Shown here: piece by piece, positions 18,694-33,380 of the stretch | Layout of the letters: every line of letters begins with the position of its first letter | Numbering within the stretch: the first letter of the stretch is position 1 | Assembly: GCA_963757065.1 (NCBI GenBank) | Contig: CAVWQC010000002.1 | Span: 296,040-360,039, forward strand | DNA: 64,000 nucleotides | Direction of reading: 5' to 3' | From: an uncultured Chloroflexia bacterium | GTDB taxonomy: Bacteria > Chloroflexota > Anaerolineae > Anaerolineales > Anaerolineaceae | Position numbers and translations under genes: made by a program | Notes under the pieces: generated by a model | What the model saw: only the letters and a program-made list of their open reading frames with translations | The model's database searches: none | What the model was told of the DNA's origin: nothing

Positions 18694-20399
18694 TTATTGA
18701 GATGGTAAACTGATCGTTCCACCCGGGAATTGATCTGCCCTTACCCAAAGCACAACTGATGTGTTCGAGTAGGATACTTTTCGGTGGACAAGCCATGAAA
18801 TCCAATCCATTGCGGTAAAATTCTGCCAATCAATGGTTTGCTCGAAAATAAAATCCTGTCCGCGGTATTGATCCTGAAATGCAAACGTCTGATCATTTCC
18901 AGCCAGAATAACAGCTGGTTGCTGATCCTTTTCAGTTGCCAATTGATATGTAATCTTTGAAAAATCCTTAAAACCCCATTTTAGTACATTTGAATCCAAA
19001 CCAACCACTGAAACACCAATCCCGGTTGAAGTATCAGCATTCCAATTTGAGATCTCATTGATCGTCTTCTTGATCAATCCCAATTGTGGCACTGTCTGGG
19101 CTGATCCTATCATTTCACTTTGCAGCCCTGTTCCTACACCTGAAACCCGCCACCCGGTCGACAAAGTGTACAAAAATAGAATTACCAGAATGCCCCAGAT
19201 ATATCCTTTCAAAGCAACTGTTCTGGACCATCCTAATACTATCAGGATTGCACTTACGAGAAGGATCCCAATTCCGCCGCCAACCGCCAGAATGAGCTGA
19301 TTCTGGTCCCCGCCATAAGTCAATTTCCCGAAATTGAACCATAAAAAACCTGCAATCGTCATGATCAAGATCGCGACTCCCATGGTCGGAATTAACTCAC
19401 CACCTTCTGTGTTTAGGTGATGCTTGATCTCAATAACTGCCAAAGTGTATAAAGGAAAAACCAACCAGAAAAATTGTGTCAATTCCCGGCCTGGATTTAC
19501 CAAAATCAGAACCAAGCCAGCCAGGAGCCAGATAAAAAGAAATTTTCCGAAGCTATTTTTCTCAATCAGGCTTCTGATCCCACCCCAAATTCCAAAGATC
19601 AGTCCCAGCGGGAAGTAGAATATTATGCCCAGCAAGAAAAGCGGGAAGGAAAGGAATTCCTGACTTTTCCAGGTGTGAAAATAATCCGTAAATGAACCGG
19701 CAAGTGCATTTAATGATCGCGGATAGGATAAGAAAAGCGTTCCAATAAGAACAACTGTAAGGATTAATGCCAGCCAAAATATGCGATCACGGATGGTTTC
19801 AGTAATTATGGATAGGGGTTGAGGCTGCTTTTTATTGGATTCCCTGTCGATCATCAGCCAGACAACCACCGCAATCGCCAGTGGAATAAGAGCTGACCAG
19901 ATACCTGCTCCGCCAAGCAATGCAAGACCACATACCACTCCAGACCCAATAATTTTCCGATTGATCAAAAAATATACCGCCAGACCCAATAAAAACAGAG
20001 AAATTGTCGAACCGCCAGCTGTCCGGGATAGAGAGACAAGGGAGGGATCCAGTGCCAGAAATGCAGCCAAAATGAATTGTCTCCCCAGTTTCCGATATTT
20101 TTACGATAGAGAAATGGGATAGCGATCACTAAAGTACCAAATATTGCGGGAATCAAACGGGCAATGAAGTTGGTTTGGTCAAATAAAGTAAACAGGAAAC
20201 TTGTTAACACCAGGTAGAGAGGTTGTCCGGACCAATTAATCGCCTGCCCTTTAGCTGTCATTAATGCCTGCAATGCTAAATTAGCTTCACTTTCGGAAAG
20301 TGTTTGATCTCCTAAATGTAAAAACCTTATAGCAATTGCCAGAACAGCGATCCCAAAGATAATTAAATATTGGTTTCTAGAGAATTTTTCCTGCATCAT
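18694..20399 (-). CDS. Polytopic membrane protein, GT-C-like / TIGR03663-like (uncertain), one frameshift as sequenced
   Basis: ORFs 19965..20399 and 18694..20070 overlap in different frames. Frame A reads ...IAIPFLYRKNIGNWGDNSFW... (non-membrane-like). Frame B reads ...RQFILAAFLALDPSLVSLSRTAGGSTISLFLLGL... One base appears to be missing between 20080 and 20102, for example in the T5 run 20098-20102, which would give FLYRKKYRKLGRQFILAAFLAL. More than 12 predicted TM helices plus a C-terminal soluble part. The start overlaps the stop of the upstream YYY gene (20396-20399). Confidence 0.6.
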
Positions 20400-22958
20400 T
20401 TTGTTGATCCAATATAAGAATAGATGGCAACGGATTGATTTTGGAAAACAGGTACCAGGTTTTGTATAAATTTAGAATCGTCCACCTGATATTTTGTGCG
20501 CTCCAAACCGCCGACATAGATATATTTTACCTTGTAAAGATCAAGAATGCTTTTAGCTTCCAACCAATCGGGAGTGGAATATAATCTCTCTATATCCGGT
20601 TCCCGATTTCCTATCTCCTCTGCCCCCCCACGCCATTGGCTTTCATGCGGCGGCCAGCCTAAAACACCTGGCATGCCGCTCAGTGTAGCCACCCGGGCAA
20701 AACTGGAATAGCTTCCACCGACGGCTTCCACAACATATCCGAAAGGTGCATTTGACAGCCACTTGATCGCCTCAGCTTCGTCAGGATTGTACTTTTCCAT
20801 ATAGGATGTACCATCCAAATTAAGACCATTAGCGGGATGAAAATTGTTGGTTGTATTCGCGATACCAATCAGGGGGTACGCTAATCCACAGAGGACAACA
20901 AAAACGATCAGAATTTTGCTCAGAACGCCAGATAGGCGATGGACTGCCATCCAAATCAATGCAACACCAACACTGGCAGCCAACGACCACAGCACCCAGG
21001 CCTGGTAATAGAATTTAAAAATGGTATTCATTCGCCAGCCAAATTGATCACGCAGATAAACGAATTCGGGGATCAAGGTCAGAAATATCCCGGCCACAAT
21101 GATAAGGAGGGTAAACACAACTCCCATTGGAATTGAATCAATCTTTCCCAACTTGTCTACATCTGGCAATGTAAATTTCCGCGGTACAAATAATGACCGC
21201 TGCGATAAGTGTACCCAGCAATAATAAAGTGACCCAGGTTCCGGGTGCAGAAAATCTCCTAAGGAATGCAGTACTAACCAATTGCCCGGTCGCAGCACCT
21301 TCCGCCCCTTGAATATTGAGGAAGTAGTAACCTGCTTCACTGAGTTTTATCCCCAGATTGCCCGGAAGAAGAGCTGACCATTTATCAGAGTTAGCCGCAA
21401 AAAGGCCCAGCCCAAATCCGCCTGCCCATAAAGCAACCAGAACTCCCAATGCAACAAGGAATCCTTTCAACAATCCTTTCCCCGGTTTTTGTTGCAGCAC
21501 CAGATATAACACAAAGGTGAATATTGGTATTAACAATGTACCAAACATCATCCAGAAATGAGTGCCCCGGGTCGAAAAGACCATACTTGGGATAATTCCT
21601 CCAGCCTGCGATGAAAACCCGATATAAAATGGTAAATACAGCAGAATTGAACCGACAACCATCAGGATGCCCAGGCTGAGCATCTTCCAAACTTCATCCC
21701 ATTTGAAACCGTGCACCATCACCCTTCTGGCAAAGTATGCTGCCAGGAAAATAGCCAGATAGACAGGGAAATCCCAGGTATTCAAGAACGCCATTCCACC
21801 CAGCAGGATCGTAAAGAAGGCAAGGTTTATTGGCGGAATATGTACTTCGATCCCCCAAATGGAAAATCCTTTTTCATCAATGGTCAGGAAGATATTTAAT
21901 GCCAGGGCGAGCATTAAGGTAACAAAAGGAAGAGCCAGAACATGCGGATGAAGGTCAGCCAGGAGAAAAGAGAAAAATGGGAATTCGTCAATGATCTCCA
22001 ACCATTCACCATTCATTTTGTAGTCTGACAATACCCGGGAAGCCCGCCACCAGATAATTCCCGCCGGACGGGAAGGCCACCAGGAGAATGGTAGAGCCGG
22101 AGCCTGGGTTAATTCCTGCAAGTCCAGCCATTTCCAGAATTGAGATTGGTATGTTCCATCCACCCCTCTGGCCCAGAATAAGCCGCGAGAGTGAATGAAT
22201 TCGAAAATCCCTTCAAAATTACTGATAACCAGTGTGAATAATGGTCCAAATAATGGTAGGAGGAAATTTGTTGTTCCAATTTCCTTTGAAACCTGCTTCC
22301 CGTTCAGTTTCAAAATCCATTTCTTTACGCCATCAGAATTGATGATGTTATAAACCAGGCCATACATGCCGATTCCGGTGAGGGAAAAAACCAGCGAGAT
22401 CATCAAATTGAATCCAATTCCCGATGGAGTTGCCGTCAATTTGACCAGCATGGCAGTGATCACGTACCCGAAGTAATAATAAGAAATGGAGTAGCCTGCC
22501 AGCCAGGGGTCATTCGGCGGGAAGGTGGCGGAATGTAAAATTGCATTGATGAATGCCAACTCCATCGGTTTTTCAGTACCGGTAATATCCGGACTAGCTG
22601 CGCGCAGCAAAGCGATCAATACAAATAACAGGAGGAACAGTATTTCTGTGGTGATCAAATACCCTTTTTGATCCAGGAATATTTCTTTTAACGCTTTCAG
22701 GGGGTTCTTTTTACTGATACCGATGCTGAGTAAAGTGAGCAGGATCAACGCCAGGAGAATCCCGCCTGAATCGTTTTGCATTACATGGTAGGAGGTGAAT
22801 ACCCAGAATATGAATCCGGTAAGCATTAACCCGAAAACCCGGCTAAATGCATAGCCGCGGTCTTTTAATGATGGCAGGAGATACTGGATCAGGGGGAGGG
22901 ATAATAATCCAATAAAACTAATTACCAGATACCATATCAAGAAATAGATCATAGCCAT
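20396..22958 (-). CDS. DUF2298 / TIGR03662 'Chlor_Arch_YYY' polytopic membrane protein (paralogue 2), one frameshift as sequenced
   Basis: ORFs 21138..22958 and 20396..21340 are one gene. Motifs GTEKPMELAFINAILHSATFPPNDPWLAGYSISYYYFGYV (YYYxG) and ...DQFGWRMNTIFKFYYQAW... align with paralogue 1. Removing one base from 'gcggAAAttt' (about 21173-21178) gives ...IICTAEFTLPDVDKLGK... Confidence 0.8.
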
Positions 22959-22972
22959 CCCTATATGACGGG

Positions 22973-32340: not shown

Positions 32341-32353
32341 TTTTCGCCTGAGT

Positions 32354-33380
32354 TTATTTGAACAGATCTGGATTGTTTTTGACCCAATTAAATAACCGGC
32401 TGATACCTTCCACCGGAGTGACCTCAGGCGTCCACCCTAGTTCATTTTCTGCTTTACGGATATCAGAGATGTACACTGCCTGATCTCCTGGACGCCAATC
32501 CCCCTTCGCAACGGGGATGGGATGCCCTACCAATTTTTCAAGTATGGGTCCGAATTGCTTCCAGATGGATATGGTATTCTCAGCTCCGCCGCCAATATTC
32601 AAAACACGTCCCGGTTTACCGACTGCCTGTTCAATCGCCAGGTCGTATGCATTTAATAGATCGTCGACAAATAAGATATCGCGAACTTGCTTGCCATCGC
32701 CATAGATCGTTATTGGTTTGCCCGTAATAGCGGCAATAACGAACCAGGCGACCCAACCCTGGTCTTCCATCCCAAATTGGTGGGTGCCATAAATGCAGCT
32801 CTGACGTAAAACTACTGAAGGCAGACCATAGATGCGGGAATAATCTCTGACATACTGGTCACCAGTCCCTTTGGAGCAGCCATACGGTGAATGGAAATCT
32901 AGTGACAGGGTCTCAGGAATGCCATAAGGATAATCCGCATATTCATATCGGTCGTCTTTCTCGACGGTCTTTACTTCTTCCATGCCCCCGTACACTTTAT
33001 TCGTGGAAGCGTACAATACCACCGGTTTGCTGCCACTGAGGCGGGCAGCTTCCACCAGGTTGAATGTCCCCAATGCATTGATCTCAAAATCTTCGCGAGG
33101 ATTTGTGACTGAGGTTGTTACAGCTACCTGTGCAGCAAGATGAACGATCACATTCATCCCCAGTGCAGCATTCGCAATCGCATCGTGGTCTACGTATATC
33201 AGCTTCAATGAGTTTAAATGATTGTCCGTATTCCCGACGCAGCCATTCCAGATTGAGCTTACTGCCCGAGCGGGAAAGGTTATCATAAATGGTTACATTT
33301 TCACCACGCTGGATCAACCTGGAAACGTAATTTGACCCGATAAAACCTGCACCACCAGTCACCAAATAACTCTTTGCCAT
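32354..33380 (-). CDS. NAD-dependent sugar epimerase (CDP-paratose 2-epimerase-like SDR), one frameshift as sequenced
   Basis: ORFs 33084..33482 and 32354..33286 are one gene. Real start is ATG 33380 (MAKSYLVTGGAGFIGSN). ...SFKLIEADIR| then shifts to |DHDAIANAALGMNVIVHLAAQ. One extra base near 33191-33199 ('cgtAgac'). LDFHSPYGCSKGTGDQY (YxxxK), DQGWVAWF and GDGKQVRD resemble RfbE-type epimerases from memory. Confidence 0.85.

Follow-up and report, generated by a model that had tools for sequence, protein, structure and literature searches.

A conserved Anaerolineales gene block with a GT-C::DUF2298 fusion, probably for extracytoplasmic glycosylation

Several described systems assemble glycans with membrane glycosyltransferases (GTs) of the GT-C type. 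In the Actinobacteria, lipomannan/lipoarabinomannan and arabinogalactan are assembled by the GT4 enzymes PimA/PimB' and then by the GT-C enzymes PimE, MptA/B, EmbA/B/C and AftA-D, with decaprenyl-phosphate sugars. In the three-component systems GtrA/GtrB/GtrC, CsbB/GtcA/YfhO and ArnC/ArnEF/ArnT, a polyprenyl-phosphate sugar is made inside the cell, flipped and transferred outside by a GT-C enzyme. Other GT-C enzymes are those of GT39, GT83 and GT66 (Pmt1-Pmt2, Pmt4, ArnT, AglB/PglB/STT3) and DPY19. The archaeal Agl22/Agl23 system is known from Haloarcula hispanica, where Agl23 works on dolichol-linked sugars at the membrane, according to PMC11182771. That paper describes purified Haloarcula Agl23 as translocating Man5GlcNAc2-PP-dolichol in proteoliposomes and as suppressing yeast rft1-delta, and it mentions an earlier proposal that Agl23 is a hexose-P-dolichol flippase (PMC11182771). 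Here, these systems are compared with a block of genes at positions 18694..33380 of a 64,000-nucleotide (nt) stretch of DNA, the window, from an uncultured Chloroflexia bacterium (assembly GCA_963757065.1, contig CAVWQC010000002.1, positions 296,040 to 360,039 of the forward strand). The block contains two modules of the family DUF2298 (TIGR03662), for which no functional study was found in the literature searched. A first reading of the window from its letters, the sequence-only reading, had held that neither DUF2298 nor its usual neighbour family has an experimentally defined function. This stands for DUF2298 within that literature. It does not stand for the neighbour family, TIGR03663, which NCBIfam now names 'flippase activity-associated protein Agl23' and for which PMC11182771 reports flippase data.

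The open reading frames (ORFs) of the block are all on the minus strand, co-directional and tightly packed. They make up eight genes, which encode four large membrane proteins with five modules. From position 33380 downwards, the genes encode an extended short-chain dehydrogenase/reductase (SDR) acting on nucleoside diphosphate (NDP) sugars, a cytoplasmic GT4, a methyltransferase, a GT-C membrane protein (GTC1), a second GT-C membrane protein fused to a DUF2298 module (GTC2::DUF2298a), a DUF952 protein, a stand-alone DUF2298 protein (DUF2298b) and an Agl23-like GT-C membrane protein (GTC3). We read the block, with somewhat better than even confidence, as a locus that is conserved among the Anaerolineales and glycosylates an acceptor at the external surface of the cytoplasmic membrane, in which case the sugars would be polyprenyl-phosphate-linked. 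What the analysis shows is the gene content, its conservation, the fusion, the fold assignments and a set of invariant acidic motifs; the donor, acceptor and product, co-transcription and any catalytic role of DUF2298 itself are inferred.

Related loci were collected in a genome scan with a DUF2298 alignment. The scan found at least 80 loci, and those listed are all from Anaerolineales or Chloroflexota metagenome-assembled genomes. The comparison set consists of 82 related loci from one order. The closest among the matches listed is L003, from a Leptolinea sp., and the relatives listed place the host among the Leptolinea-like Anaerolineae; the Chloroflexi host proposed at first agrees with this. 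In the gene-neighbourhood check, the order lepA-(flippase-like)-(epimerase)-GT4-methyltransferase(s)-GTC1-GTC2::DUF2298a-(DUF952)-DUF2298b-GTC3-cmk is kept in at least about 80 species-level Anaerolineales genomes, with 43-93% protein identity. Among the 39 loci that reach lepA, GT4 is present in 38, GTC1 in 33, the methyltransferase in 30 and the epimerase in 27. Among the 63 loci that reach GTC3 or cmk, 58 have DUF2298b and 28 have DUF952; GTC3 is found in 63 related loci, where it adjoins cmk. The sole recurrent accessory gene encodes an LPG_synthase_TM protein (PF03706, MprF-flippase-like, 1e-38) and lies in the interval between lepA and the epimerase or GT4 gene in 41-43 loci (for example, L050 1906..2907). 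An MscS-like or FkbM-like gene occurs in a small number of loci, and extra methyltransferases also vary within the cluster.

Two of the three GT-C proteins match Pfam families directly. GTC1 (28287..30441, minus strand) is a PMT_2-type protein of 717 amino acids (aa) once a 1-nt insertion near 30325 is removed, and its 686-aa ORF in the window matches PMT_2 with 36.4 bits (cut-off 26.1). GTC2 is encoded with DUF2298a in a single gene (23327..28277, minus strand; 1649 aa once a 1-nt insertion near 25964 is removed), and its 775-aa ORF in the window matches PMT with 38.0 bits (cut-off 22.7). The AlphaFold2 model of GTC2 (pLDDT 88.1) has a polytopic helical domain followed by a beta-sandwich plus alpha/beta external domain. 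Foldseek gives 33 PDB matches to this model at E<=1e-3, every one of which is a GT-C enzyme. The partners include AglB (1e-8), Pmt4 (2e-8, TMt 0.56), yeast and human STT3, ArnT, ALG9/12, PglB, EmbA/B/C and AftA. A GT-C fold is strongly supported for GTC2 by this predicted structure.

GTC3 (18694..20399, minus strand; 567 aa once two inserted bases at 20076-20082 are removed) has nothing above threshold in Pfam. In hhalign comparisons it is linked to both GTC1 and GTC2 with a probability of 86-90% (E 2-5e-6), and the acidic motifs fall opposite one another in these alignments; GTC1 aligns with GTC2 and GTC3 at 86-88% probability. Profile evidence of this kind supports the assignment of GTC1 and GTC3 to the GT-C proteins. 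The intact GTC3 ortholog of L003 matches TIGR03663 with 61.7 bits (E 6e-17; profile positions 3-350 of 435; cut-off 126.25), the N-terminal GTC3 fragment in the window with 39.8 bits (2.8e-10), and GTC2 weakly, with 23.7 bits (2e-5). The HPDE motif is unchanged in all 66 GTC2 sequences, and the SDHAEK motif in all 51 GTC1 sequences. Both line up by hhalign with PLS(D/E)xEA of GTC3, and in GTC1-3 the aligned acidic motif follows the first helix of the GT-C core. The motif of GTC1 is near residue 231, past several N-terminal helices. No WWDYG-type sequon-binding motif, MIR domain or TPR was found.

The two DUF2298 modules match one another by hhalign (probability 100%). DUF2298a, in an 867-aa ORF, is a complete module with a YYYYG motif; it matches TIGR03662 with 466 bits (cut-off 300) and PF10060 with 371 bits. 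DUF2298b (20396..22958, minus strand; 853 aa once a 1-nt insertion near 21194 is removed) is matched in fragments at TIGR03662 profile positions 3-426 and 478-725 and has a YYYFG motif. Its intact L003 ortholog matches TIGR03662 with 511 bits. Pfam and NCBIfam thereby uphold the two DUF2298/TIGR03662 proteins, with YYYYG and YYYFG, that had been named from the letters. The model of DUF2298a (pLDDT 90.1, pTM 0.92) has DPY19 as its sole PDB matches at E<=1e-3 (6e-6 to 1e-5, probability 1.0). ArnT comes next (E 0.013, probability 0.97), and every non-GT-C match has a probability of 0.2 or less. The C-terminal domain of DUF2298a resembles the C-terminal globular domain of archaeal AglB over 174 columns (probability 1.0, TMt 0.52). 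On the basis of this model, DUF2298 likely has a GT-C-like fold.

The invariant polar residues of DUF2298 lie in GGEKPMD, PPxDPW, YYYxG, EFPFF..D.H.H, RMNTxFK and GWxWHxxQQR, several of which are in loops predicted to be external. EKPMD is placed after the fourth helix. The helix map and the positive-inside pattern suggest an N-out protein with three helices before a GT-C-like core and with EKPMD outside. An N-out DUF2298 fits the fusion, because the C-terminal domain of a GT-C protein lies external to the membrane. The sequence-only reading had assigned a GT-C-like architecture to five large membrane products, each with an acidic motif in its first extracytoplasmic loop. The architecture is borne out for GTC2 by the 33 Foldseek matches, for GTC1 by Pfam and for GTC3 by hhalign, and it is weaker for DUF2298, where it comes from DPY19, ArnT and the C-terminal domain of AglB. 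The motifs are invariant, but their position differs from the one proposed in DUF2298 (after the fourth helix) and in GTC1 (near residue 231). The products themselves are four proteins carrying five modules, not five separate proteins.

In 80 of the 82 related loci, homologs of GTC2 and DUF2298a are encoded in one stop-free ORF, as mapped by ORF calls and blastp. The two exceptions are error-prone long-read loci. Database homologs of the 775-aa ORF contain PF10060 together with PF02366/PF13231 within a single protein, and the peptide at the GTC2-DUF2298a junction is conserved. The second DUF2298 module is paired as well: the start of GTC3 overlaps the stop of DUF2298b by 4 nt. TIGR03662 and TIGR03663 genes occur in pairs, as in the TIGRFAM description. 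The two arrangements in the block suggest that DUF2298 is a fixed partner of a PMT/Agl23-like GT-C module, fused in GTC2::DUF2298a and translationally coupled in DUF2298b-GTC3. By analogy, such a pairing would resemble the heterodimeric GT-C enzymes Pmt1-Pmt2 and EmbA-EmbB.

Outside the Anaerolineales, DUF2298 is found in other settings. Its members number in the thousands in the Chloroflexota and Lachnospiraceae, and at least one homologue is archaeal, on a Halarchaeum plasmid, where the neighbouring genes are uninformative. The Lachnospiraceae account for 1768 matches (E<=1e-5), and the sources that are named include Blautia and Pseudobutyrivibrio, so that the distribution first proposed (Chloroflexi and Archaea) is too narrow. 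In the Pseudobutyrivibrio xylanivorans plasmid pNP95 (L084 8917..11172), DUF2298 lies within a polysaccharide locus with two GT2 genes, a GtrII-like gene, an O-antigen-ligase-family gene, DegT and an NDP-sugar epimerase/dehydratase. In Blautia sp. MSJ-19 and in a Lachnospiraceae-type metagenome contig (L086 5553..9813; L087 7014..11247), DUF2298 is once more one of a pair: the gene just upstream, which encodes a polytopic membrane protein of about 670 aa, overlaps it. This partner has no Pfam or NCBIfam match that would give it a GT-C or Agl23 identity. It matches the DUF2298b profile weakly (17.9 bits), which was put down by eye to a shared C-terminal domain. In another Chloroflexi genome, DUF2298 is listed beside PMT2 genes.

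The block shares features with each of the described systems and differs from each. Like the actinobacterial assembly, it has a cytoplasmic GT4 followed by several GT-C proteins with large external domains, and GTC2 structurally matches EmbA/B/C and AftA; some actinobacterial GT-C enzymes are also heterodimeric (EmbA-EmbB). Unlike that assembly, it has DUF2298 modules and a fusion, and there is no detectable orthology, the matches being at the level of the fold (7-12% identity). To our knowledge, neither DUF2298 modules nor the GT-C::DUF2298 fusion are known from Actinobacteria. The likeness to archaeal Agl22/Agl23 lies in GTC3, which is related to TIGR03663/Agl23, and more weakly in GTC2, each of which adjoins or is fused to a TIGR03662 module. 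The differences are that GTC3 is below the family cut-off, that the host is bacterial and that the activity reported for Agl23 is that of a flippase and not of a transferase (PMC11182771). With the GT-C enzymes of GT39, GT83 and GT66 and with DPY19, the block shares the PMT_2 and PMT matches and the acidic motif after the first transmembrane helix of the core. It differs from them in its low identity (10-17%), in having no MIR, TPR or WWDYG, in the external beta-sandwich plus alpha/beta domain of GTC2, and in DUF2298, which begins with three additional helices and does not resemble these families at the profile level. The logic of the three-component systems would be shared, but the block encodes neither a GT2 synthase nor a small GtrA-type flippase; what it has in their place is a GT4 and a methyltransferase, together with five GT-C-type modules. 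If the block is, as is probable, a locus of a known kind (GT-C-based envelope glycosylation), it is new in that the GT-C::DUF2298 fusion is universal and the pairing occurs twice.

The upstream part of the block consists of cytoplasmic enzymes. The epimerase/dehydratase gene (32354..33380, minus strand) encodes 341 aa once a 1-nt insertion near 33192 is removed. Both of its fragments in the window match Pfam Epimerase and GDP_Man_Dehyd, at consecutive profile positions. The best NCBIfam matches of the intact L003 ortholog are RmlB (dTDP-glucose 4,6-dehydratase; 186 bits, cut-off 365) and GalE (154 bits, cut-off 262), and no RfbE model (CDP-paratose 2-epimerase) is within its top 25 NCBIfam matches. 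By its profile matches, the protein is a member of the extended-SDR epimerase/dehydratase superfamily; of the earlier label, 'RfbE-like SDR epimerase', the extended SDR is borne out, and 'RfbE-like' is not shown by these matches, with RmlB and GalE both below their cut-offs. The GT4 protein (31174..32340, minus strand; 388 aa; GT-B fold) matches Pfam Glycos_transf_1 (6e-27, 94.7 bits) and Glyco_transf_4 (8e-18, 65.5 bits), both above threshold, and reaches no equivalog cut-off in NCBIfam. The methyltransferase (30450..31172, minus strand; 240 aa) is a class I S-adenosylmethionine-dependent enzyme by Pfam (Methyltransf_23 5e-20, Methyltransf_11 1e-17). The cytoplasmic trio as first named is the one that Pfam returns, with the epimerase as an extended SDR.

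The DUF952 gene (22973..23323, minus strand) encodes a small soluble protein of 116 aa. Pfam agrees with the name given to it at first (PF06108, 95 bits, cut-off 23.7), and the protein matches the CC0527 structures in the PDB (2O0Q, 2O0P and 2JQN; E 5e-13). The literature assigns the CC0527/DUF952 family to the ART clan, with a Tpt1-like ADP-ribosyltransferase fold and an H-H-h motif. By these matches, the protein is an accessory member of the cluster with a predicted CC0527/Tpt1-like ADP-ribosyltransferase fold. A fold of NAD-utilising proteins is here found inside a glycan cluster, between two DUF2298 genes, in 28 of 63 loci.

In the proposed pathway, the NDP-sugar epimerase/dehydratase would supply a modified nucleotide sugar in the cytoplasm, and GT4 with the methyltransferase would make or prime a lipid-linked glycan or glycolipid. 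This intermediate and polyprenyl-phosphate sugars, the latter from a donor synthase that would be encoded outside the block, would then cross the membrane. The MprF-type flippase-like protein of the 41-43 relatives, and the Agl23-like modules, may contribute to this step. Outside, the five GT-C-type modules (in GTC1, GTC2::DUF2298a, DUF2298b and GTC3) would transfer sugars from polyprenyl-phosphate donors. Candidate acceptors are a wall or sheath polysaccharide, a lipoglycan and a surface protein. The sequence-only reading had suggested a full gene set for an envelope glycan, S-layer or protein-glycosylation pathway. The outer-face glycosylation in this suggestion is partly supported, by the folds and the gene order. 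About 11 kb from the block, the window contains a mannose-1-phosphate guanylyltransferase gene (NTP_transferase plus ManC beta-helix; 44119..45243, minus strand), which may be able to supply GDP-mannose.

Several observations weigh against outer-face glycosylation with polyprenyl-phosphate-linked sugars. A search of the block and of the clusters in the 82 loci found no GT2 synthase for polyprenyl-phosphate sugars. The LPG_synthase_TM flippase-like gene of the relatives is absent from the window and was not seen in the maps of the closest relatives, L001-L003. Lacking both genes, the set in the block is not 'full' as had been proposed. By its profile score, GTC3 is a relative of TIGR03663/Agl23 and not a member, because 61.7 bits is below the cut-off. 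The whole-chain TM-scores of DUF2298a to GT-C enzymes are low (0.25-0.35), hhalign gives a probability below 5% for DUF2298 against the GTC1, GTC2 and GTC3 profiles, and a DUF2298 profile search against PDB sequences finds nothing relevant. Because of the low whole-chain scores and the lack of profile-level similarity, the GT-C assignment of DUF2298 is rated as likely and not as proven. Promoter and terminator scans of the block find sites that are no more numerous than in shuffled sequence, or fewer, and so are uninformative. Conserved order extends to the flanking genes lepA, cmk, plsC and peptidase C69. Since these housekeeping genes are syntenic, the conserved order of the block is in part general synteny within one order, and taken alone it carries less weight than do the fusion and the spacings of 0-14 nt.

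The spacings between the ORFs as called are 13, 1, 8 or 102, 9, 19, 3 and 14 nt, plus one 4-nt overlap, and all were found as the sequence-only reading gave them. Of these, the 19 nt that separate the 775-aa and 867-aa ORFs are a frameshift artefact, with one continuous ORF in 80 of the 82 related loci. The two ORFs are one gene; therefore the block has eight genes, not the nine counted at first. The true start of GTC1 is the ATG at 30441, 8 nt past the methyltransferase stop. In the corrected models, neighbouring genes are separated by 0-14 nt or overlap, and the block is probably a single transcription unit, to judge from its layout.

Five of the eight genes are frame-broken in this assembly. 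The reference for this comparison is L003, an Illumina-assembled, uncultured Leptolinea sp. that is collinear with window positions 35937..15000 at 88.6% nt identity. Comparison with L003 shows that single bases are inserted in the window, without compensation, at about 33192, 30462, 30325, 25964, 21194 and 20082/20076. When 33192, 30325, 25964, 21194 and 20082 plus 20076 are deleted, stop-free ORFs of 341, 717, 1649, 853 and 567 aa result. The intact proteins of L003 have 341 (epimerase), 388 (GT4), 242 (methyltransferase), 717 (GTC1), 1651 (GTC2::DUF2298a, a single ORF), 116 (DUF952), 853 (DUF2298b) and 567 aa (GTC3). As assembled, the epimerase is in two frames (33084..33380 and 32354..33286), with the GGAGFIGS Rossmann motif on one fragment and the remainder on the other. 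DUF2298b is divided into 21138..22958 (606 aa) and 20396..21340 (314 aa), and GTC3 into fragments of 144 and 458 aa. The methyltransferase ends in AKKV in the window and in AKKPKP in L003, with a probable extra A in a run of seven at 30462 (30450..30470, minus strand). The sequence-only reading had treated the genes as intact; four of them, those for the epimerase, GTC1, DUF2298b and GTC3, are divided between two frames, and both the frameshifts and the GT-C::DUF2298 fusion had been overlooked. The breaks point to about one indel error in every 3 kb of the assembly. With sequence this error-prone, what is read from its ORFs needs to be checked against a clean relative.

If these insertions were real mutations, the cluster would be decaying and pseudogenised, and frame-breaking insertions relative to L003 in five of eight genes are what such decay would leave. 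The breaks are not confined to the block. The essential rpoC gene (minus strand) is split in the same way, with domain 1 in 10620..12287 and domains 2-5 in 8042..10759, in overlapping frames, and so is a UbiA prenyltransferase gene (36128..37010, plus strand). The long-read relatives L001 and L002 (from ENA) are broken in other genes at other sites, and protein identity to L003 is steady at 87-93% on either side of each break. For these reasons the breaks are sequencing or assembly errors and not pseudogenes. With the Illumina relatives intact and with single-base deletions reopening every ORF, the pseudogene reading was rejected; real decay is scarcely credible. A second alternative is that the genes are neighbours merely by conserved synteny in the Anaerolineales and form no functional unit. 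The order kept by lepA, cmk, plsC and peptidase C69 around the block fits this alternative, as does the fact that all 82 comparison loci are within one order. The short spacings and overlaps do not, nor does the fusion of two members into one gene. Every member is annotated as glycan-related or as a membrane glycosyltransferase, the accessory genes gained or lost in the cluster are of the same kind (the flippase-like gene and extra methyltransferases), and DUF2298 in Firmicutes is linked to glycan genes or to a paired membrane protein. Taken together, chance neighbourhood is very improbable.

Two other alternatives accept a functional unit and assign its parts differently. The modules may glycosylate secreted or S-layer/sheath proteins, a sub-variant of the outer-face reading in which the acceptor differs. 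The best structural matches of GTC2 are AglB and STT3, which are oligosaccharyltransferases, and the protein O-mannosyltransferase Pmt4. GTC2 also matches Pfam PMT, the C-terminal domain of DUF2298 resembles the C-terminal globular domain of AglB, and the best whole-chain match of DUF2298 is DPY19, a protein C-mannosyltransferase. Foldseek rank among GT-C enzymes is, however, blind to the type of acceptor, and ArnT, ALG9/12, Emb and AftA match GTC2 too. No WWDYG-type sequon-binding motif was identified. The GT4, the methyltransferase and the lipid-flippase-like gene of the relatives suggest assembly of a lipid-linked glycan, and the Pseudobutyrivibrio DUF2298 gene lies in a polysaccharide-type locus, which leaves a protein acceptor rather unlikely. 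We regard as slightly less probable again that DUF2298, the Agl23-like modules or both are translocators, scramblases or scaffolds for lipid-linked sugars and that GTC1 and GTC2 alone are catalytic. Of the relatives of GTC3, only Haloarcula Agl23 has been studied by experiment, and it is described as flipping Man5GlcNAc2-PP-dolichol in proteoliposomes (PMC11182771). The global similarity of DUF2298 to GT-C enzymes is weak and its profile similarity is nil, and in a clade without the MprF-like flippase gene, such as that of the window, another protein must flip. Against this, the predicted external loops of DUF2298 are rich in invariant acidic, His and Arg residues and its external domain is conserved, a pattern that is typical of an active site and not of a passive channel, and GTC3 retains the aligned GT-C acidic residue.

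Some further features of the window lie outside the block. Downstream of it, cmk (17884..18558) and a PlsC-type acyltransferase (17225..17887) are separate adjacent genes, and in three relatives cmk and PlsC are in one ORF (L030 17007..18518, L061 16738..18117 and L071 17086..18456). The segment 60001..64000 has a G+C content of 0.52-0.54, compared with about 0.44 elsewhere, and contains recA, S-adenosylhomocysteine hydrolase and a PfkB kinase, which are ordinary conserved housekeeping genes. An Rfam scan of the window found no rRNA or other RNA matches.

Layers in the layered envelope of the Chloroflexota are only 'suggested' to be polysaccharide or protein (PMC13319060). The locus is a concrete candidate for the missing envelope-glycan machinery of this phylum, because it holds a fixed core-genome position, from lepA to cmk, in at least about 80 Anaerolineales species and encodes five GT-C-type modules. 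A bolder form of the outer-face reading, which we put forward tentatively and consider doubtful, is that DUF2298 is an unrecognised catalytic GT-C family that works only in two-module form with a PMT/Agl23-like partner, and that the locus makes the major non-peptidoglycan polymer of the Anaerolineae envelope (an outer layer, a sheath or a lipoglycan). If true, the two-module pairing would explain the archaeal TIGR03662-TIGR03663 pairs and the Lachnospiraceae DUF2298 gene pairs. For DUF2298 itself, the likely GT-C-like fold, the PMT/Agl23-like partner that is fused or coupled to it, and the invariant residues that are predicted to face outward and are open to mutation would provide a first functional handle on the family.

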